Origin: Escherichia phage fp01
Direction: 5' to 3' (one strand)
Sequence record: NC_048731.1
Length of the DNA stretch: 64,000 bases
A program made the translations under genes and the position numbers. Positions 6,347 through 14,342 of the stretch are shown piece after piece (the first letter of the stretch is position 1; every line of letters begins with the position of its first letter). The notes beneath the pieces are model-generated. The model was not told the origin of the DNA and made no database searches. It saw only the letters and a program-made list of their open reading frames with translations.

Positions 6347-7051
6347 ATGGCTGGTTCTCGTAGAAAGAAACATATCCATGAAATCCCTGATGAAGTCTTT
6401 AAAAAGGTTATAGAGCATCTGGGGAACGGTGGTACTAAGAAAGCAGCATGTGAAATGCTCGGCGTATCATCTAATCCAACTATGGAAAGGATGATTGAAG
6501 AATGGCAAGACCGCCAGATTCAAGTTGCCGAAATGAAGAAAAAGAAACGTGGCACACTTATTGAAGGCATCGAGCTAGCTAACGTTATTGAGCAGTATTT
6601 GTCTGGTGATTCTTTTGAAGAGATTGCCGATCGTAATTATCGCTCTGTAGCAATGGTTAAATCTGTTCTGGAACGATATGGTGCTCTACTTCGTTTGAAC
6701 GATATTGTAGATCCATTGAATCCTCCGATTATTCCTGATGATGCTGTAGCAGAAGAATTTGCAGTTGGTGAGCTTGTTTGGGTTCCTGGATACCAGTGTA
6801 TCGGTGAAATCAAAAAAGCAATGGATAATCCTGTTGGTTGCTACCGTGTATGGCTTCTATCAGAAGGCAAACAACAGAACGTCCATTATATGAATTACGA
6901 GCTGGCCTCTGTTAAACATCTGGAAAAGCTAGGGGTTGACGTAAAGTCTCTGGGATATAAATGGACTCGTGAAGAAATTATTACGTTGATTAACGAAGCT
7001 GTTAAGGCTGCCCTGAAACTTGATAAAGAAAAAGGAAAACGCCGTGAGTAA
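6347..7051 (+). CDS. hypothetical early protein with HTH-like segments, possible regulator
   Basis: Starts 16 nt after the PN25-like leader RBS; HTH-like stretches GTKKAACEMLGVSSNPTMERMI and FEEIADRNYRSVAMVKSVLER. Confidence 0.5.
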   Translation: MAGSRRKKHIHEIPDEVFKKVIEHLGNGGTKKAACEMLGVSSNPTMERMIEEWQDRQIQVAEMKKKKRGTLIEGIELANVIEQYLSGDSFEEIADRNYRSVAMVKSVLERYGALLRLNDIVDPLNPPIIPDDAVAEEFAVGELVWVPGYQCIGEIKKAMDNPVGCYRVWLLSEGKQQNVHYMNYELASVKHLEKLGVDVKSLGYKWTREEIITLINEAVKAALKLDKEKGKRRE

Positions 7052-7295
7052 GCTAACTGATTTGCTTAAAGATGGGGAAGTAAAAACTCTGTACCGTAGA
7101 AGCTGGGATAATGATAATAATGGCTTAGTATTACTAACTCTAGATGCTGATTTGGATGTAGTTACCCAACATACCTGGGTAGCTGGTAACTATCCGTATA
7201 GCGAGGTTGTAGCATTAACAGTATGCGAAGCTATTGCGGACGATTGGGAGGTTTCCAGCATCGATGATATGCTCGCTGTTGGCCTAGTGGAGTAA
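7047..7295 (+). CDS. hypothetical protein
   Basis: ORF overlapping previous stop (GTGA); probable GTG start after purine-rich tract; acidic small protein. Confidence 0.4.
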   Translation, partial: SKLTDLLKDGEVKTLYRRSWDNDNNGLVLLTLDADLDVVTQHTWVAGNYPYSEVVALTVCEAIADDWEVSSIDDMLAVGLVE

Positions 7296-7304
7296 CTACT
7301 GAAA

Positions 7305-7345
7305 AATTTCAGTTGCTTAATCCTATAATTCTTGATATAATATTC
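7305..7345 (+). promoter_or_regulatory. T5-type early promoter
   Basis: -35 TTGCTT (7313-7318), 17-nt spacer, -10 TATAAT (7336-7341), AT-rich upstream. Confidence 0.55.
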
Positions 7346-7398
7346 TCATAGTTTGAAAGAACTATTCTGTTTAATTCTTAATTAAGGAAATATAAAAT

Positions 7399-7809
7399 AT
7401 GACTACTCCAACTCAGTGGACTGATGAACTGTTCGAAAAAATGTCTTCCGAATACGTTGCTCGTATGGAGCAATTCCCAGAGGATGAACGTCCGGGTGTT
7501 AGCATGGAAATTGTTAGCGAAATTGCCCAAGAAAATGGTGTAACTCCGAACGGTTTTCGTATGAAGCTGACTAAAGCAGGTTTGTATATCAAGAAAGCTG
7601 CTGGCTCTGCTTCTAAATCTAGCGCATCTACAGGAGAAAAAGCTTCTGGTGGTTCTCGTACTTCCAAAGCCCAAGCTCATGCCGACCTTCGTTCAGCATT
7701 CTCTGATGCTGGCCTAGCACCAGATTTTCTGGATGATGCAATTATCGACAAACTGACCGGTAAAGCGGCTGCTCATCTGGCAGAAGCAATCCGAGCTATC
7801 ACTAAGTAA
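7399..7809 (+). CDS. hypothetical protein, likely abundantly expressed
   Basis: Good RBS (AAGGAAAT), strong bias to CTG/CGT/GCT codons unlike neighbours; Ala/Ser/Lys-rich central linker. Confidence 0.55.
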   Translation: MTTPTQWTDELFEKMSSEYVARMEQFPEDERPGVSMEIVSEIAQENGVTPNGFRMKLTKAGLYIKKAAGSASKSSASTGEKASGGSRTSKAQAHADLRSAFSDAGLAPDFLDDAIIDKLTGKAAAHLAEAIRAITK

Positions 7810-7823
7810 TAAGGAGATTATAC

Positions 7824-8114
7824 ATGAACAAGCAAGAAATTATCTCCGCATGTGAAGCTCATAACGAGTTCTATCTTCATTACGAGAAATTACGCCAAAA
7901 AGGTACTACGTACCTTCAAGGTACTATGGATTTTTCTGATAAGTACCTTAGTAAACGATTTGCCCAGGAGCGTATTCGTCAACCAAAAGACGACGAGATT
8001 CTAGTATTTAGTCGTACTAATGATAGCTTCCGTTTTATTCCTGTAAATAAGGTGAAACGTATTACTTCATTGTCTAGTGAACTCGATAGAGCTACGCCAG
8101 TAGGCAAAAAATAA
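7824..8114 (+). CDS. hypothetical protein
   Basis: RBS AAGGAGA 7 nt upstream; 96 aa; followed by a terminator. Confidence 0.45.
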   Translation: MNKQEIISACEAHNEFYLHYEKLRQKGTTYLQGTMDFSDKYLSKRFAQERIRQPKDDEILVFSRTNDSFRFIPVNKVKRITSLSSELDRATPVGKK

Positions 8115-8120
8115 TAAAGA

Positions 8121-8150
8121 AAAGGAGAGCTTCGGCTCTCCTTTGTTGTA
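8121..8150 (+). terminator. rho-independent terminator
   Basis: aaaggagagc-ttcg-gctctccttt perfect stem followed by TTGTTGTAT. Confidence 0.6.
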
Positions 8151-8161
8151 TATGGGTTATA

Positions 8162-8827
8162 GTGAAAAAGTTAACAGCAAAGCAAATAAATAAAGAATTA
8201 GAGCCGCGAGGTTTTAGTATAGTAAGTGAGTGGATTAATATAAGGACACCCGCCATATTTAAGTGCTCAAAAGGTCACCAATGGAGGGCATACCTAAACA
8301 ACATAAGAAAAGGTAGTGGTTGTCCACACTGTAGTAATAAAGCTAAGCTTACTATAGAGCAAATAAATCAACAATTAGCCAATAGAGGTATAAAACTTGT
8401 ATCCACGTATATCAATGCCCATAGTCAAGCAGTATTCGAGTGCGAAGAAGGACATAGGTGGACTAGTAGCGTGGATAAGATTAAAAATGCAGGAAGATCT
8501 TGTCCTATCTGTATAGCTACAAGCTATTTGTATATATTTTATAGCCAGCAGCTTGGAACAAAAATAGGAACATCTAAAAGTCCAGAGAGAAGACTTTTAG
8601 AGATCAAAAAAGATTCTAATCTAGAGGACTTGAGTGCATATGGAGTATACTCTTGTGAGGGGTCAGCATATAATCTAGAAAATAAAGCACATAGATTCTT
8701 TAGTGCTACACAGATATTTACAGAATCAATATTTGACGGTTCTACTGAGTTTTTCAATATTCAACCAGAGGAGGCAGAGGAATATCTCCTAAGTCAGGGA
8801 GCAATAAAATGTCAGGAGATAATGTAA
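8162..8827 (+). CDS. putative homing-endonuclease-like protein (duplicated Cys4 zinc ribbons plus GIY-YIG/T5orf172-like segment)
   Basis: Two repeated modules C-x-x-GH-x-W...C-P-x-C; downstream YLYIFYSQ...TKIGTS resembles the GIY-YIG/T5orf172 nuclease core; AT-rich codon usage unlike flanking genes; GTG start. Confidence 0.4.
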   Translation: MKKLTAKQINKELEPRGFSIVSEWINIRTPAIFKCSKGHQWRAYLNNIRKGSGCPHCSNKAKLTIEQINQQLANRGIKLVSTYINAHSQAVFECEEGHRWTSSVDKIKNAGRSCPICIATSYLYIFYSQQLGTKIGTSKSPERRLLEIKKDSNLEDLSAYGVYSCEGSAYNLENKAHRFFSATQIFTESIFDGSTEFFNIQPEEAEEYLLSQGAIKCQEIM

Positions 8828-9120
8828 ATCAGGATTATGTTGGACATGTAGATGATCAGTCCATAGTTATCTGGGAAAGAGAAGATGGCCAACAGGTTAG
8901 GCTAACTGTATCTGAGTTTAGGGGGAATCTATACTTAGGAATTAGGTACTGGCTCCAAGATATAGAAGGTGAATGGTTTCCAACAAAAAGTGGATTCAGT
9001 ATGCCCTACACTCTAGAAACAACATCTCATTTATTTAAGGCATTTACTAAAATATTATCTAATAGTGAGGTTTTATTAGAAGTAGAAAAAGAAGCTAAAC
9101 GCCTGGCGGAAAAAGAATAA
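8809..9120 (+). CDS. hypothetical protein
   Basis: 103-aa ORF overlapping upstream gene end; AT-rich codon usage shared with 8162-8827. Confidence 0.35.
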   Translation: MSGDNVNQDYVGHVDDQSIVIWEREDGQQVRLTVSEFRGNLYLGIRYWLQDIEGEWFPTKSGFSMPYTLETTSHLFKAFTKILSNSEVLLEVEKEAKRLAEKE

Positions 9121-9124
9121 ATGT

Positions 9125-9160
9125 ATTTGCTTTCAACTCAGTTTTGTTATATAATATTTA
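9125..9160 (+). promoter_or_regulatory. T5-type early promoter
   Basis: -35 TTGCTT (9127-9132), 17-nt spacer, -10 TATAAT (9150-9155), then ATAAATTGATGAGAG leader. Confidence 0.6.
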
Positions 9161-9186
9161 TATAAATTGATGAGAGATACAAATAA

Positions 9187-10158
9187 ATGACTAATGTAAA
9201 AGACTTTATTAAACGTTGTCAAGAAGCATATTACCAGGGAATGTCTTTAATCTCTGACGAAGAATATGATCGTCTGATTAAAAGATTTCCGTTAGAAGAA
9301 GAGATCGGGCCTAAGGGTGATATTCCACATCTGTATCGTATGTATTCTTTACAGAAAGTTTATTATAATCGTGGAGATAAACCCCCATTTAACCCGTTAG
9401 GTCAGGTAGAAACTGATAAGTTAGATGGTTGTGCGATTTCTCTGTTATATATTAATGGCGAATTTGTTCAAGCACTAACTCGTGGCAATGGTATTCTAGG
9501 GAATGATGTCACAAGCAACGTAAGATTGCTGAACATCCCCAAAAAGATTTCCCAAAAAGTACCTACTCAAATCACTGGTGAAGTTCTAATTACAAAAGAA
9601 GTAGAAAATAAACGTAACTTTGCCTCTGGTGCTATTAACCTCAAAGATAGCGATGATTTCGTACAACGTATCGGAGAAGGTGGTTTAATCTTCGTTGCAT
9701 ATGGTATCCAGTGTTCTGCTGAATCTGTAGGTATTACAGAAACGTATTTAAAAGATATGCTTTGGCTAGAGAATGAGAACTTCTTAACAGTTGTTAATGT
9801 GCGTTCCTTCTTTAAATGGATTCCGACGGATGGTAAAGTTGTTCGTATTAATGACAACAACAAATTCTTCCGAGAAGGCTGGACTAATAAATTCCCTCGT
9901 GGAGCATTCGCTATTAAAGAGGATGAAGAAGGCGAGATTACAACTCTTACTAAAGTTGAATGGCAGGTAGGGGCTTCTGGTAAAGTAACTCCAGTTGGTT
10001 ATTTCGAACCGGTAATTATTGATGATGCTACAATTGTTAAGGCGACTCTTAATAACGTTGATTATATTAACTCTCTTGATCTAGAGATCGGTTGCCAGAT
10101 TCGAGTGATTCGTGCCGGTGGTGTAATCCCGTGCATAGTAGAGCGAGTATACGATTAA
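9187..10158 (+). CDS. ligA: NAD-dependent DNA ligase, N-terminal subunit (domain Ia, adenylation, OB fold)
   Basis: Domain Ia-like SDEEYDRLIKRF, adenylation lysine motif KLDGCA, TRGNG motif; ends before the Zn-finger region. Confidence 0.8.
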   Translation: MTNVKDFIKRCQEAYYQGMSLISDEEYDRLIKRFPLEEEIGPKGDIPHLYRMYSLQKVYYNRGDKPPFNPLGQVETDKLDGCAISLLYINGEFVQALTRGNGILGNDVTSNVRLLNIPKKISQKVPTQITGEVLITKEVENKRNFASGAINLKDSDDFVQRIGEGGLIFVAYGIQCSAESVGITETYLKDMLWLENENFLTVVNVRSFFKWIPTDGKVVRINDNNKFFREGWTNKFPRGAFAIKEDEEGEITTLTKVEWQVGASGKVTPVGYFEPVIIDDATIVKATLNNVDYINSLDLEIGCQIRVIRAGGVIPCIVERVYD

Positions 10159-10208
10159 TACATAACCCTTTGCTACCCATCCACCATATCGGAATTATAA
10201 AGTGGTTA

Positions 10209-10237
10209 TTGACATTTTCGCCGCTTAGGTATATACT
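10209..10237 (+). promoter_or_regulatory. near-consensus sigma70 promoter inside the ligase spacer
   Basis: TTGACA (10209-10214), 17-nt spacer, TATACT (10232-10237). Confidence 0.5.
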
Positions 10238-10299
10238 ATTATCATTCAGTTGAGGGATAGAAAGTTATGGCGAGGGTAAGCAAAGTTAGTTAAAATTGT

Positions 10300-10335
10300 A
10301 GTTGCTAAATGCTTAAATACTTGCTATAATATTTA
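10300..10335 (+). promoter_or_regulatory. T5-type early promoter
   Basis: -35 TTGCTA (10302-10307), 17-nt spacer, extended -10 TGCTATAAT (10322-10330), then ATAAATTGATAAGGAAG leader. Confidence 0.6.
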
Positions 10336-10357
10336 TATAAATTGATAAGGAAGAAAT

Positions 10358-11140
10358 TTGATGAAAATCGAAATTCCAACACAATGTCCCTCTTGTGGTT
10401 CTAAGCTAGATCTTGTCAACGGACAATTATTCTGTCGGAATAAGTCCAACTGTCCAGCGCAATCAAGTAAGTTAATTGAGAACTTCTGTACAAAAATGAA
10501 GTTAAAGGGCTTTGGCCCAAAAACTATTGAGAAGCTGGAGCTGACGAAGATTTCAGAACTATTTTACCTAACCGAAGAAGATTTGGTTAGAGCCGTGGGT
10601 AGCAAGGTTGCCGCTAAGTTAATTAGCGAATTAAATACTAAAGTTCGCGGAGACATTGACTTTGGTTCAGTTCTCGGTTCTTTAGGAATCCCTCTAATAG
10701 GAGAGGTTGCAGCAAAGAAATTATCCCAAAATTGCACTAGCTTCCACGATGTGAAGGCTGACGGCAAGGCTGGAGAAAATTATAAAGCCTGGCTAAATTC
10801 CCCACAAGGCAGGGATGTTATCGAACTACCGTGGAAATTTTCAACCGGTATTAAGGGCACTAAAGCTAATATCATCATTACAGATGAATTAGTTGCCCAG
10901 CCAAATGGAATCGCGGTATGTATTACCGGATCTTTGCAAGATTTTGCAAATAGAACGGATGCAACAAACTATTTAGAAGGTCTAGGATATACGGTTAAGA
11001 AATCCGTTACCAAAGACGTCAAATACCTGATCTGTGAGGATGAATCAAAACGTTCTTCCTCATCTTATAAGAAAGCCGAAACGAATGGGATAGAAATCCT
11101 GTCGATTAAAGAACTATTGGAGAAAAATAATAATGTCTAA
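10358..11140 (+). CDS. ligB: NAD-dependent DNA ligase, C-terminal subunit (Zn finger, HhH, BRCT)
   Basis: Starts with Cys4 Zn finger CPSCGSKL...CRNKSNCPAQ, then Gly-rich HhH-like segments and BRCT-like C-terminus. Confidence 0.8.
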   Translation: MMKIEIPTQCPSCGSKLDLVNGQLFCRNKSNCPAQSSKLIENFCTKMKLKGFGPKTIEKLELTKISELFYLTEEDLVRAVGSKVAAKLISELNTKVRGDIDFGSVLGSLGIPLIGEVAAKKLSQNCTSFHDVKADGKAGENYKAWLNSPQGRDVIELPWKFSTGIKGTKANIIITDELVAQPNGIAVCITGSLQDFANRTDATNYLEGLGYTVKKSVTKDVKYLICEDESKRSSSSYKKAETNGIEILSIKELLEKNNNV

Positions 11141-11900
11141 ACTGAACTGGAACGTAGAAGGTGTAACCGAGTCTCTGAAAGCAAAAGCCACTGCTCTGGG
11201 TGTTTCTGTAATCTCTCAAGAACAAGTAGCTGCTATCGCTGCTGAACTGGCTGCTGAAACTGGCAAAGATGTTACTGCCCGCTCTGTTGGCTCTAAACTG
11301 CGTAAAGAAGGTTTTGAAGTACAGAAAGCTAACGAAGTACAGAAATCCCCGTGGACTCCTGAGCAGGAAGCTGAACTGGTTGATTTCCTGAACGCTCATG
11401 CTGGTCAGTATACCTATGCTGAAATCGCTGCTGCTGTAGCTGGTGGCCAGTTCGGTGCTAAACAGGTACAGGGTAAGATTCTGAGCCTGGAAATGACCGC
11501 TTCTGTTAAGCCAACCGAAAAAGCTGCTGCTGTTCGTTCCTTCACTCCGGATGAAGAAACTGATTTTGTTAATCAGGTTGTTGCTGGTGCTACTATTGAA
11601 GCTATCGCTGCTCACTTCGGTCGTAATATCAAGCAGATCCGTGGTAAAGCTCTGAGCCTGCTTCGTGAAGGTCGTATCGCGGCTATGCCGGTACAGGAAA
11701 CTTCAAGTGCTAAAACTCGTGAAGATCTGTTAGAAGGTCTGGATCTGGTTAACATGACTGTTGCTGAGATCGCTGAGAAAACTGGTAAATCTGAGCGCGG
11801 TGTTAAATCTATGCTGTCTCGTCGTGGTCTGGTTGCTAAGGACTATGATGGTGCCGCTAAGCGTGCTAAACTGGATGCAAAAGCTGCGGCTGTTGAATAA
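11133..11900 (+). CDS. Ala-rich abundant protein, possibly a D5-like DNA-binding protein
   Basis: RBS GGAG; strongly E. coli-optimised codons; internal duplicated segments; size about 28 kDa. Confidence 0.4.
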   Translation: MSKLNWNVEGVTESLKAKATALGVSVISQEQVAAIAAELAAETGKDVTARSVGSKLRKEGFEVQKANEVQKSPWTPEQEAELVDFLNAHAGQYTYAEIAAAVAGGQFGAKQVQGKILSLEMTASVKPTEKAAAVRSFTPDEETDFVNQVVAGATIEAIAAHFGRNIKQIRGKALSLLREGRIAAMPVQETSSAKTREDLLEGLDLVNMTVAEIAEKTGKSERGVKSMLSRRGLVAKDYDGAAKRAKLDAKAAAVE

Positions 11901-11914
11901 TCTGGTAAATTAAA

Positions 11915-11950
11915 CCTAAGGGGAGGGGGCTATGCTCCTTCCCCTTTTTG
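11915..11950 (+). terminator. rho-independent terminator
   Basis: aagggga...tcccctt stem followed by TTTTTG. Confidence 0.55.
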
Positions 11951-11982
11951 CATTTAGAAGGCACGAAAGCGTGCAAAGGAGA

Positions 11983-13455
11983 ATGACCTTGTTTAACGTG
12001 CAAGCTGTAGTGTTGAAGATGCTTCTAGCTTCCGAACAGAAGCAAATAGCATTGGAAACATTCTCAAAACTGCATAAAGATCATTTTAATGACGCTTTCT
12101 CCTCAATTTACCAAGCCGTCCAGAATTATTATAAAAAATATAACACAATGCCGTCCATTGACGCACTTATGCTTGAAGCTAATAGGAACGCCCGCCTTTC
12201 TCAAGCTCTAGTCGTCTTAGCTAACACTCAAATTCCAGAAGTGAGCATGGAACAGGCACTTGAAGTCCTAGAAGCCGAGTATACGCAGGATTTATTCTTG
12301 AAGCTTCTAGAAACAGACGTGCTTCAAGATTTAACAATGCTGGATCAGGGAGAAATTCTCAACCGAGTTGCCTCCCTTCACTTAAAATTAGAAGAGAAAG
12401 TAACGAATACTGGAAAAGTATTCAACGCAGATAACATGCGTATTTTCCAGAGAGAAGAAGATACCAAACTGAACTTAATCGCTCTTGGTATTTGTAATGA
12501 GTTCGACGCTCAAATTGGTTTAGCTCGCACAGAAACGTTACTGCTTGGTGGTTGGCGTGGTACTGGTAAATCCATTATCTGTTCAAACATACAGGTTCAG
12601 CAATATTTGAATGGAGATATTGCTCCATACTTCTCAATTGAGATGAAAGAACATGAAGTATTTAGACGTAATCTAGCCATGTTAGCTGGTGTATCAGCAC
12701 TAGCAATGCGTAATAATACTCTAGAAGGTGCAGCTCTGTTGAGATTAGCCAGAACTAGAGCTAGAATGTTTAATGGTGGTGAAGAGCTTTTCGATAACTT
12801 CGTTAAACAGTATACAATGGCTAAGATGAGTGATTTCTACGATATGGAGAGTAAGCTAATAGAAGGGTATGAACTACATACTCCTATGATTATTGTTTAT
12901 GATCCTGAACTGTCCATTACAACAGTTGACGTAGAATTAAATAAGTTAGTTGCTAGATATGGTGATAAAGTTACAGTAGCTTTACTTGATTATATTAACC
13001 AAACCCGACTTCCAGACTCTAAAACCATTGATATGTATGACTGGAAAGAACAGATGGTTGTTAGCTCGTCTTTCAAATCTATCTGTCAGAAACATAACGT
13101 GGCTGGCGTAGCTCCTTACCAGATCGATCAAGATGGTAGAACACGTATGTCAAAGGGGATTCTTGATTCCGCAGACATGGCTGCTAATCTTAATGCTGCA
13201 AAAGCTGATAATGGTCAAGGTGCTATTATGTTTGACTTCGTTAAGACTCGTTCTTCTGATAGCGTGAAGTTTATGCCTAAAATGAACTGGGAAACCCTGC
13301 GGATGGATAACACTACCAATCTAGCAATGGAAGATATATCTCAAATGGAAGCTGAGTTCGTTATCCCTATTGAGAAGGATAAGCCGGCTCAACCTAAACG
13401 TGCTAAGAAAGACAAAACTGAAAATTCAACAGGTGAACAGGCCAGCGATATATGA
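11983..13455 (+). CDS. DnaB-like replicative helicase (RecA-fold ATPase)
   Basis: Walker A-like GGWRGTGKS and Walker B-like IIVYDPE; start moved to internal ATG at 11983 (RBS AAAGGAG) because the track start lies inside the upstream terminator. Confidence 0.6.
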   Translation: MTLFNVQAVVLKMLLASEQKQIALETFSKLHKDHFNDAFSSIYQAVQNYYKKYNTMPSIDALMLEANRNARLSQALVVLANTQIPEVSMEQALEVLEAEYTQDLFLKLLETDVLQDLTMLDQGEILNRVASLHLKLEEKVTNTGKVFNADNMRIFQREEDTKLNLIALGICNEFDAQIGLARTETLLLGGWRGTGKSIICSNIQVQQYLNGDIAPYFSIEMKEHEVFRRNLAMLAGVSALAMRNNTLEGAALLRLARTRARMFNGGEELFDNFVKQYTMAKMSDFYDMESKLIEGYELHTPMIIVYDPELSITTVDVELNKLVARYGDKVTVALLDYINQTRLPDSKTIDMYDWKEQMVVSSSFKSICQKHNVAGVAPYQIDQDGRTRMSKGILDSADMAANLNAAKADNGQGAIMFDFVKTRSSDSVKFMPKMNWETLRMDNTTNLAMEDISQMEAEFVIPIEKDKPAQPKRAKKDKTENSTGEQASDI

Positions 13456-14342
13456 GTAGAATAACAGAACTACTTGATCTGAAAGGCATTGAATATAAAG
13501 ACACAGGTGGGGACATCCTCATCTGTTGTCTCAATCCAGATCATGACGATAAACACCCAAGTTTGCGTATTGATCCTGAAACAGGTATTATGCACTGCTT
13601 GAGTTGTGGCTTCGGTAAAGGTATACCGAGCATTTACCATTATTTTAATGAGACTCAGTACCGACAGTCTCCAAGACTATCGCAGGTACGTAAAAAGATT
13701 TCAGAGATTAGGAATGGATCTACGAATCTTGCAATTCCTGAATCTGCTTACCTTTTCGAAGGTGATTTCCGAGGTATAAGTTCTAAGACCTTGAAGAAAT
13801 ATTTTGCTTTCCAACACCAAGCAGACTGGGAAGGCAGAATTGTATTCCCAATCACAGATGCTGTTGGACGCAATATCCTATTTTTGGGTCGTTCTATAAA
13901 CAGTTCTGCCCCTCCTAAATACTTAGTAAAACCAAAACAAGTTTCACCACCGATTTTCCCTGTACGATATAATACTCCAGTTCTTATTCTAGTTGAAGGT
14001 ATCTTTGATATGCTGAACCTAGAGGATAATGGTATAGACTATGCTTCTTGCTGCTTTGGCACACATCAGTTCACCTCAGATAACATTGCAGATAAGTTCA
14101 GTCCTTATATTATTGCTGGTGTTAAAGTTGTTGTTATCTTACTAGATAATGATGCTTCTGGTAATAAGGCTGCACAAGCATTGGCCAAATTAATTCGTAC
14201 AAAAACGCGTTTAACACCTGTAGTTGCTAACTTTCTTCTACCAGAAGGCAAAGATCCAGGTGACTTAAACAAAGATGAAATTGATATGTTAGCAAAACGT
14301 ATTGAAATTTTAGTTGCTGAATCGCTTAAAGATTTGGTATAA
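13452..14342 (+). CDS. DNA primase (CHC2 zinc finger plus TOPRIM-like)
   Basis: Zn-binding CCLNPDHDDKHPSLRID...HCLSCG typical of DnaG-type primase; ATGA overlap with helicase. Confidence 0.7.
   Translation: MSRITELLDLKGIEYKDTGGDILICCLNPDHDDKHPSLRIDPETGIMHCLSCGFGKGIPSIYHYFNETQYRQSPRLSQVRKKISEIRNGSTNLAIPESAYLFEGDFRGISSKTLKKYFAFQHQADWEGRIVFPITDAVGRNILFLGRSINSSAPPKYLVKPKQVSPPIFPVRYNTPVLILVEGIFDMLNLEDNGIDYASCCFGTHQFTSDNIADKFSPYIIAGVKVVVILLDNDASGNKAAQALAKLIRTKTRLTPVVANFLLPEGKDPGDLNKDEIDMLAKRIEILVAESLKDLV

Follow-up and report, generated by a model that had tools for sequence, protein, structure and literature searches.

The NAD+-dependent DNA ligase of bacteriophage T5 is split between two genes, an arrangement that PMC1684257 and PMC3632103 trace to the T5 genome paper of Wang et al. 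in 2005. The split ligase has been in the literature since that year and is annotated as subunit A and subunit B in hundreds of genomes. In the T5 record AY692264 the genes are named T5p114 (ligA) and T5p115 (ligB), and each half of the enzyme has a PHROG family of its own, phrog_3359 for ligA and phrog_3498 for ligB. An orthologous two-chain enzyme from the Providencia phages PSTCR5 and vB_PreS_PR1 is represented by the PDB entries 9HU3 and 9I5I. Single-chain LigA, for which we used the E. coli structure 2OWO, the Thermus structures 1DGS and 1V9P and the jumbo-phage family phrog_3869, has the same domain order, namely domain Ia, nucleotidyltransferase (NTase), OB fold, zinc finger, HhH and BRCT. 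LigN truncated to domain Ia, the NTase domain and the OB fold, a construct designed to mimic the T5 split, self-adenylates, and the C-terminal region of archaeal LigN (zinc finger, HhH and BRCT) is required for at least one step after adenylation (PMC1684257). Our search of the literature returned no biochemical data for the fp01 or T5 ligase. The Aeh1 nrdA-a/mobE/nrdA-b and T4 gene 39/mobA/gene 60 arrangements, known as 'genes in pieces', likewise produce an essential DNA-metabolism enzyme from two adjacent genes whose products reassemble (PMC2988022, PMC3045599).

We analyzed a stretch of 64,000 nucleotides from Escherichia phage fp01 (NC_048731.1), referred to here as the window. Its DNA is 92-98% identical to that of more than 400 T5-like phages (Tequintavirus and relatives), and the source is a Tequintavirus, that is, a T5-like phage. 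A first-pass annotation of this DNA, made from the sequence alone, had described a NAD+-dependent DNA ligase encoded as two separate genes; it was correct, although it overlooked that the split ligase was long known and already named. We conclude that the locus is very probably ligA/ligB, encoding the two-polypeptide NAD+-dependent DNA ligase of a T5-like phage with no covalent link between its parts, and we found no sequence evidence contradicting this reading.

The locus has the same genes, junction and neighbors as T5 ligA/ligB (AAU05253/AAU05254). The gap between the genes is 99.6% identical to that of T5, both promoters included, the concatenated proteins are 96.5% identical, and the differences are strain-level substitutions only. 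The gene order, PC4-like, ligA, ligB, D5, helicase and primase, is the same in the window, T5, BF23 and DT57C. Upstream of the PC4-like gene, the window holds an extra gene for a T5orf172-type endonuclease-like protein (8162-8827), which is absent from T5, BF23 and DT57C.

The ligA and ligB genes and the position of the break

The coding features of the locus and the gap that separates them are as follows.

9187-10158, plus strand: ligA, 323 aa, with domain Ia, a nucleotidyltransferase domain containing K78-L-D-G81, and an OB fold (Pfam, PDB and PHROG)
10159-10360, plus strand: ligA-ligB gap, 202 bp, 32% GC, non-coding, with 5-6 stop codons per frame
10347-10353, plus strand: ligB ribosome-binding site AAGGAAG, 7 nt before the ATG and kept in Klebsiella phages
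10361-11140, plus strand: ligB, 259 aa from the ATG, with a Cys4 zinc finger, an HhH region and a BRCT domain (residues 183-254)

The first ORF had been said to carry domain Ia, the KxDG adenylation site and the OB fold, and all three were recovered by Pfam, in the translation or by alignment to 1V9P. The adenylation domain matched PF01653 (6.5e-24; 85 bits against a cut-off of 27) and aligned to the LigA adenylation domains in the PDB, with the KxDG motif of the translation falling at K78-L-D-G81. The OB fold matched PF03120 over residues 252-321 (3.8e-22), and ligA 214-320 aligned to the OB region of E. coli LigA (284-390). Residues 15-30 (YYQGMSLISDEEYDRL) aligned to residues 13-52 of Thermus LigA 1V9P (ISDEEYDRL versus ISDAEYDRL); the aligned segment is short, with a weak E-value of its own, and the domain Ia call rests on the NAD+-specific motif (E. 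coli Y22, D32, Y35 and D36). The NTase domain is shorter than that of single-chain LigA (321 residues cover 373 profile positions). The protein matched phrog_3359 over its full length (positions 1-325 of 325, 1.4e-176), and its C-terminus, GGVIPCIVERVYD followed by the stop codon, lies immediately past the final OB strand.

The second ORF was described as opening with a Cys4 zinc finger and carrying the HhH and BRCT regions, which Pfam and the alignment to E. coli LigA bear out. In the protein, which begins MKIEIPTQCPSCGS, eight residues precede the zinc finger, and Cys9, Cys12, Cys25 and Cys31 align to Cys408, Cys411, Cys426 and Cys432 of E. coli LigA within a longer alignment of ligB residues 3-122 to E. 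coli 402-529. The BRCT domain matched PF00533 (9e-8; 32.7 bits against a cut-off of 21.3). The HhH match was sub-threshold in Pfam (24.5 versus 27 bits) and no match to a ligase zinc-finger family was listed by Pfam at E ≤ 0.01, so that the zinc finger and HhH assignments rest on alignment to solved LigA structures. The protein also matched phrog_3498 over its full length (1-255 of 256, 7.9e-137). An alternative start at TTG 10358 would give a protein of 260 aa. We consider ATG 10361 the likelier start, given that AAGGAAG precedes it by 7 nt and that Klebsiella relatives lack a start codon where the window has the TTG. The D5-like gene begins at 11133, so that its start overlaps the end of ligB.

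Against the single-chain phage LigA profile phrog_3869 (656 positions), ligA covers positions 9-381 and ligB positions 388-654. In E. coli LigA numbering, ligA ends at about residue 393 and ligB starts at about residue 400, with ligB residue 3 corresponding to 402. The two genes and single-chain LigA have the KxDG motif and the four zinc-binding cysteines in common, whereas the chain is broken in the window at about E. coli residues 393/400, and identity to the jumbo-phage LigA proteins is only about 25%. About six inter-domain linker positions of single-chain LigA have no counterpart in either protein, and no domain is truncated. By these alignments the OB fold lies on one side of the break and the zinc finger on the other, and all domains are present. 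It had been proposed that alignment to single-chain LigA would place the junction between domains with no residues lost; the inter-domain junction stood, but the expectation of zero missing residues did not, as the six or so linker positions are absent.

Promoters ahead of ligA and ligB

Three promoters were placed at the locus, one ahead of ligA and two within the gap.

9115-9182, plus strand: ligA promoter and leader, TTGCTT (9127-9132), 17 nt, TATAAT (9150-9155), the same as a 'putative promoter' in T5 AY692264
10209-10237, plus strand: distal promoter, TTGACA-17-TATACT, 11 of 12 consensus matches, the same as T5 'P-K 28b', whose span maps to 10189-10263
10302-10330, plus strand: proximal promoter, TTGCTA-17-TGcTATAAT, with a TGn extended -10, the same as T5 'P-K 28a', whose span maps to 10282-10356

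The first-pass annotation had placed a near-consensus TTGACA-17-TATACT promoter and a T5-type early promoter in the spacer, and these two correspond to P-K 28b and P-K 28a of T5, the coordinates of which were transferred from the T5 record by ungapped alignment. A literature search for the source of these names found none. We take the names P-K28a/b to stem from functional promoter cloning in the Bujard laboratory (Gentz and Bujard 1985).

A consensus scan of positions 7000-13500 ranked the distal promoter first (11/12) and put the proximal promoter among six sites tied next at 10/12. The scanned DNA is AT-rich and yielded 18 promoter-like sites against 17.5 expected, so consensus matches alone are not above chance. 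We nevertheless credit the two gap promoters because they keep a fixed distance to the ligB ATG in relatives and are annotated in T5. In a comparison of 12 Demerecviridae phages from at least seven genera (Tequintavirus, Sugarlandvirus, a Serratia phage, Priunavirus, Novosibvirus, Thalassavirus and another Vibrio group), the ligB ATG follows the distal promoter at 148-155 nt and the proximal promoter, where that one scores, at 54-59 nt, and the two promoters are spaced 93-96 nt apart across the family. In the window they stand at -152 and -59 from the ligB ATG, the same positions as in T5. The Providencia phages PSTCR5 and PR1 have the same tandem promoters before ligB, although their ligase genes have diverged to 59-61% DNA identity to the window.

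The proximal promoter also resembles the promoter of ligA. A 22-nt block, TATAATATTTATATAAATTGAT, occurs at 9150-9171 and again at 10325-10346, giving two exact copies in the 64-kb window where 0.02 would be expected, and it covers the -10 element and leader common to the ligA promoter and the proximal ligB promoter. An ATATT discriminator, reported for all known T5 early promoters (PMC7472727), is present at the proximal promoter at 10328-10332.

We compared the 155 nt before ligB with the ligA/ligB coding DNA for identity to the window. The values were 77% versus 67% in Klebsiella phage P5010, 72% versus 61-65% in Serratia phage Kamaji, 66% versus 58-59% in Vibrio phage Athena, and 58% versus 59-61% in Providencia phage PR1. 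Because this stretch is conserved at least as well as coding DNA in three of the four genera compared, we conclude from the alignments that the 155 nt upstream of ligB are under purifying selection and are not decaying.

No terminator-like site was detected in the ligA-ligB gap of the window, whereas PR1 has an annotated terminator after ligA. The transcript predicted from the distal promoter folds well in the window (z = -4.25), but the fold is weak in other genera (z from -2.05 to +0.03), and RNAalifold run on the gap across seven genera gave zero consensus pairs and thus no conserved RNA structure. The predicted inverted repeat differs by genus, with its 3′ arm overlapping the proximal -35 region or the adjoining promoter spacer.

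Insertions after ligA and the origin of the split

The depth of the split was assessed among relatives. All tblastn matches at 47% identity or higher were in two or more pieces, among them those in Demerecviridae of Klebsiella, Proteus, Providencia, Serratia and Vibrio, and the next-best matches, at about 27% identity or less, were to jumbo and other phages in which LigA is a single piece. The best 120 LigA homologues from a search of 5.8 billion proteins, which reached down to 46% identity, are 310-337 aa long, with the exception of one 240-aa partial sequence, and carry the adenylation and OB domains only. Neither these 120 homologues nor the tblastn matches at 47% identity or higher included a fused close relative, and ligB is carried by about 930 phage records.

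The first-pass annotation had suggested that the spacer could be the scar of a lost intron or homing endonuclease and that it should be compared with relatives carrying an insert at the site. That comparison was productive, as a GIY-YIG homing endonuclease was found at the site in two phages. In Klebsiella phage AmPh_EK80 the interval from the ligA stop to the distal promoter contains a gene for a GIY-YIG protein of 219 aa (Pfam 1.4e-5), and Serratia phage Kamaji carries a 58%-identical homologue in the same slot, the sole other one in the phage collection. The start of the endonuclease gene and the stop of ligA overlap by 8 nt in each of the two phages, and a start/upstream-stop overlap of this kind has been described for free-standing T4 endonucleases (PMC2988022). 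P5010, the sister of AmPh_EK80, has no GIY-YIG gene in the ligA-ligB slot. The ligA genes of these sisters show 26 differences; 12 are crowded into the final 30 nt, where they change a single amino acid. Such a distribution is consistent with a homing target that has been recoded, or with a co-conversion tract. The Vibrio relatives have other genes in the same slot. Taken across these genomes, the slot between ligA and the promoter cassette reads as a recurrent insertion site.

The scar itself is unsupported in the window, where the gap is conserved and holds no remnant: tblastn with the GIY-YIG proteins of EK80 and Kamaji against the gap and the whole window returned noise only. Apparent gap inserts in close relatives, seen as two-piece DNA matches, were traced to a small additional ORF located ahead of ligA and outside the gap.

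The occupied slots bear on how the split arose. A homing endonuclease or mobile cassette could have entered the OB-Zn linker in an ancestor of the Demerecviridae, with the gap left over after its loss. This origin is compatible with the ligA/ligB reading, and we regard it as possible but on the whole unlikely. It would account for the GIY-YIG gene beside the recoded ligA 3′ end in EK80 and Kamaji as well as for the other cargo in the Vibrio relatives, and it has precedents in Aeh1 nrdA, split by mobE (PMC2988022), and the T4 topoisomerase, split by mobA (PMC3045599). In addition, downstream of the distal promoter come a Shine-Dalgarno sequence of its own and a mini-ORF of 8 codons (10267-10293), perhaps the stump of a vanished gene. 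As a gene in its own right this mini-ORF was dropped, its peptide not being conserved in other genera. Against such an origin, the gap of the window lacks any endonuclease remnant, and the endonuclease is present in only two phage records as compared to about 930 with ligB, which suggests that it came late, to a gene already divided. In three of the four genera compared, conservation is higher in the 155 nt ahead of ligB than in the coding DNA, so this stretch is under selection. There are no novel 'tails' at the break, unlike in Aeh1 NrdA, and no fused close relative was found that would fix the direction of the event.

Two relatives, EK80 and Kamaji, share with the Aeh1 and T4 'genes in pieces' a homing endonuclease lodged in the gap, the start of which runs into the stop of the gene before it. 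The window differs from those systems in that its gap has no endonuclease and its proteins have no insertion-derived tails. Its break also lies in an inter-domain linker and not in the active site, and the T5-type split, unlike theirs, is fixed across a whole phage family.

Two separate chains and their proposed assembly

We also considered whether the two products might be rejoined into one chain through a group I intron, translational bypass or a split intein, which we judge to be very improbable. T-even and T5-like phages do harbor introns, inteins and one bypass element (gene 60), and 'fractured genes' with split inteins are documented (PMC2677866). However, an Rfam scan of 8800-11400 at E ≤ 1 returned no intron or other RNA family apart from a chance miRNA match outside the gap, and two promoters plus a ribosome-binding site take up the gap itself. 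LigA stops at the OB fold and LigB opens 8 residues before its first Cys, and because ligA and ligB fill the phrog_3869 profile on either side of the break there is no room for intein halves. The PDB chains of the Providencia enzyme likewise end and start where the ORFs do. Chain A of 9HU3/9I5I, 'DNA ligase (NAD(+))' (339 aa), corresponds to ligA 4-323 and aligns through the last residue of ligA (E = 3e-104), and chain B, 'DNA ligase subunit B' (248 aa), corresponds to ligB 1-255 with its Met1 aligned to ligB Met1 (E = 3.5e-80). The 244 aligned residues shown of chain B are 100% identical to ligB of the Providencia phages PSTCR5 and vB_PreS_PR1.

The two-gene reading, with the split between the OB fold and the zinc finger, is upheld by the gap itself, since ligB lies in a different reading frame from ligA and stop codons occur in every frame between them. 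The spacer is 199 bp long if ligB starts at the TTG and 202 bp if it starts at the ATG, and its plus strand contains no ORF of at least 30 aa except a 53-aa frame-shifted ORF that overlaps the end of ligA. When the gap was searched together with the 40 nt of coding sequence flanking it at either end, 428 phage records covered at least 80% of the query and 427 records matched at 95% identity or higher. Two adjacent ORFs on the same strand in different frames would also be left by a frameshift introduced in sequencing or assembly, or by the decay of a one-gene ligase into a pseudogene, but we reject this explanation as having next to no chance of being right, because the 202 bp are non-coding with 5-6 stops in each frame, the intact gap and identical layout recur in 428 independently sequenced phages from at least seven genera, both halves are well conserved as proteins with full-length PHROG matches and stand-alone LigA homologues, and the solved structure of the orthologue holds both chains. 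Neither a frameshift nor splicing, the two outcomes that the first-pass annotation had set against its own reading, was found, given the 428 independent records on the one hand and the lack of an Rfam intron and the two PDB chains on the other.

For the ligA/ligB enzyme as two separate chains, we propose the following working. LigA, with domain Ia, the nucleotidyltransferase domain and the OB fold, would react with NAD+ at Lys78 to form the enzyme-AMP and would carry out the nick chemistry. LigB, with the zinc finger, HhH and BRCT regions, would supply the DNA-clamping surface, as does the C-terminal half of single-chain LigA. The two polypeptides would assemble without a covalent link into a NAD+-dependent ligase. 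Transcription of ligA would start from the early promoter at about 9127-9155, and since no terminator is detectable after ligA, ligB would probably also be reached by read-through from this promoter. In addition, ligB would be transcribed from the two tandem sigma-70 promoters in the gap and translated from its own ribosome-binding site, if this phage uses these promoters as we infer.

The window thus represents one more strain of the split T5 ligase, and existing knowledge of the enzyme is unchanged. We speculate, with a low expectation that the whole proposal will hold, that the gap is a family-wide regulatory cassette, in which the paired promoters, the genus-specific inverted repeats and the proximal -10 block copied from ligA might jointly set the LigA:LigB ratio, and that the slot upstream of it is a live homing site for a GIY-YIG enzyme recognizing the ligA 3′ end, with this traffic recording the way in which the gene was first divided. 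The conserved promoter cassette, the recurrent insertion slot and the shared 22-nt block offer a testable route to the origin of the split and to the balance of subunit amounts.

Genes inserted between ligA and ligB in relatives

The slot between ligA and ligB is occupied by a GIY-YIG homing endonuclease gene in two relatives, whose ligA-ligB loci are L005 and L011:

L005 1556-2215: GIY-YIG homing endonuclease gene of Klebsiella phage AmPh_EK80
L011 1998-2714: GIY-YIG homing endonuclease gene of Serratia phage Kamaji

These two genes, from phages of two genera, are homologous and lie between ligA and the ligB promoters, each with an 8-nt overlap with the ligA stop. The last 30 nt of ligA in AmPh_EK80 are heavily recoded relative to its endonuclease-free sister P5010, with a single amino-acid change. 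In Kamaji the ORF is annotated from 2100, which appears to place its start too far in the 3' direction, since an ATG at 1998 is where the GIY-YIG motif begins.

Vibrio Demerecviridae carry one to three additional small genes in each ligA-ligB slot, one of which is annotated as DprA-like with faint Pfam support (E about 0.008):

L006 1569-2461: extra small genes in the slot
L007 1569-2787: extra small genes in the slot
L008 1557-2017: extra small genes in the slot

In the window itself, an endonuclease-like gene lies 360 bp from ligA on its upstream side:

8162-8827, + strand: 221-aa endonuclease-like protein, with domain matches and matches to a PHROG "endonuclease" family

The protein contains a pair of treble-clef zinc-finger/CapR repeats together with a T5orf172/MUG113 domain, which is related to GIY-YIG. 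The gene was found in phage SelmaRatti and is missing at the corresponding position in T5, BF23 and DT57C. It probably represents a mobile gene with an endonuclease-like product.

Ligase entries in the databases

In Proteus phage VTCCBPA139 (L009 601-1654), ligA is entered as a 209-aa "hypothetical protein" and its tblastn match falls into three pieces, which probably reflects a frameshift or sequencing error in the record and not a further split of the gene. The short records OR847187.1 and OR848168.1, both named "Listeria phage LM ...", together with short records labelled as Campylobacter phages, share 97-99.6% identity with the ligase region of the window; these T5-like ligase records are probably mislabelled or contaminant. 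An Enterococcus faecalis entry holds a 240-aa fragment with 100% identity to the corresponding part of ligA.

Terminator-like hairpins, a predicted transcript hairpin and a mini-ORF

A scan for terminator-like hairpins returned strong candidates on either side of the module and none between ligA and ligB:

8121-8144, both strands: terminator-like hairpin with a symmetric 10-bp stem, 3' of the ORF at 7824-8114
11918-11946: terminator-like hairpin with a 13-bp GC-rich stem and a T-run, 3' of the D5-like gene

The predicted transcript from the distal gap promoter (10244-10345) would form a long hairpin, with a folding energy of -28.9 kcal/mol and a z-score of -4.25. At the equivalent position in other genera (loci L010, L011, L012, L009, L006 and L008) a different inverted repeat is predicted, the 3' arm of which covers either the -35 region of the proximal promoter or the part of the promoter spacer directly beyond it. 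Fold z-scores were weak outside the window's genus, and RNAalifold gave no consensus structure for the gap transcript across genera. The distal and proximal promoters are 93-96 nt apart wherever both score. The predicted hairpin or inverted repeat may serve as an operator or as a processing site, or may be due to chance.

The same predicted transcript contains a short reading frame:

10252-10293, + strand: Shine-Dalgarno-like GAGGGA and 8-codon mini-ORF downstream of the distal promoter

The mini-ORF runs from the ATG at 10267 to the TAA at 10293 and encodes MARVSKVS. A Shine-Dalgarno sequence with a very short ORF of 2-9 codons occurs at the equivalent place in most other genera, where the encoded peptides are unrelated; in Vibrio phage Athena a start codon is lacking at this position. 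The mini-ORF could be what is left of a lost gene or a start-stop leader, or could have arisen by chance.

A sequence block common to the ligA and ligB promoters

The 22-nt block TATAATATTTATATAAATTGAT, which covers the -10 element and the initial transcribed region, occurs before ligA (9150-9171) and before ligB (10325-10346). These are its only two copies in the 64-kb window, against a chance expectation of 0.02. A looser early-promoter pattern (TATAATN6ATAAATT, one mismatch allowed) has eight matches. From these counts we conclude that ligA and ligB carry the window's most similar promoter-leader pair. This likeness possibly serves balanced expression of the two ligase subunits or arose through gene conversion.
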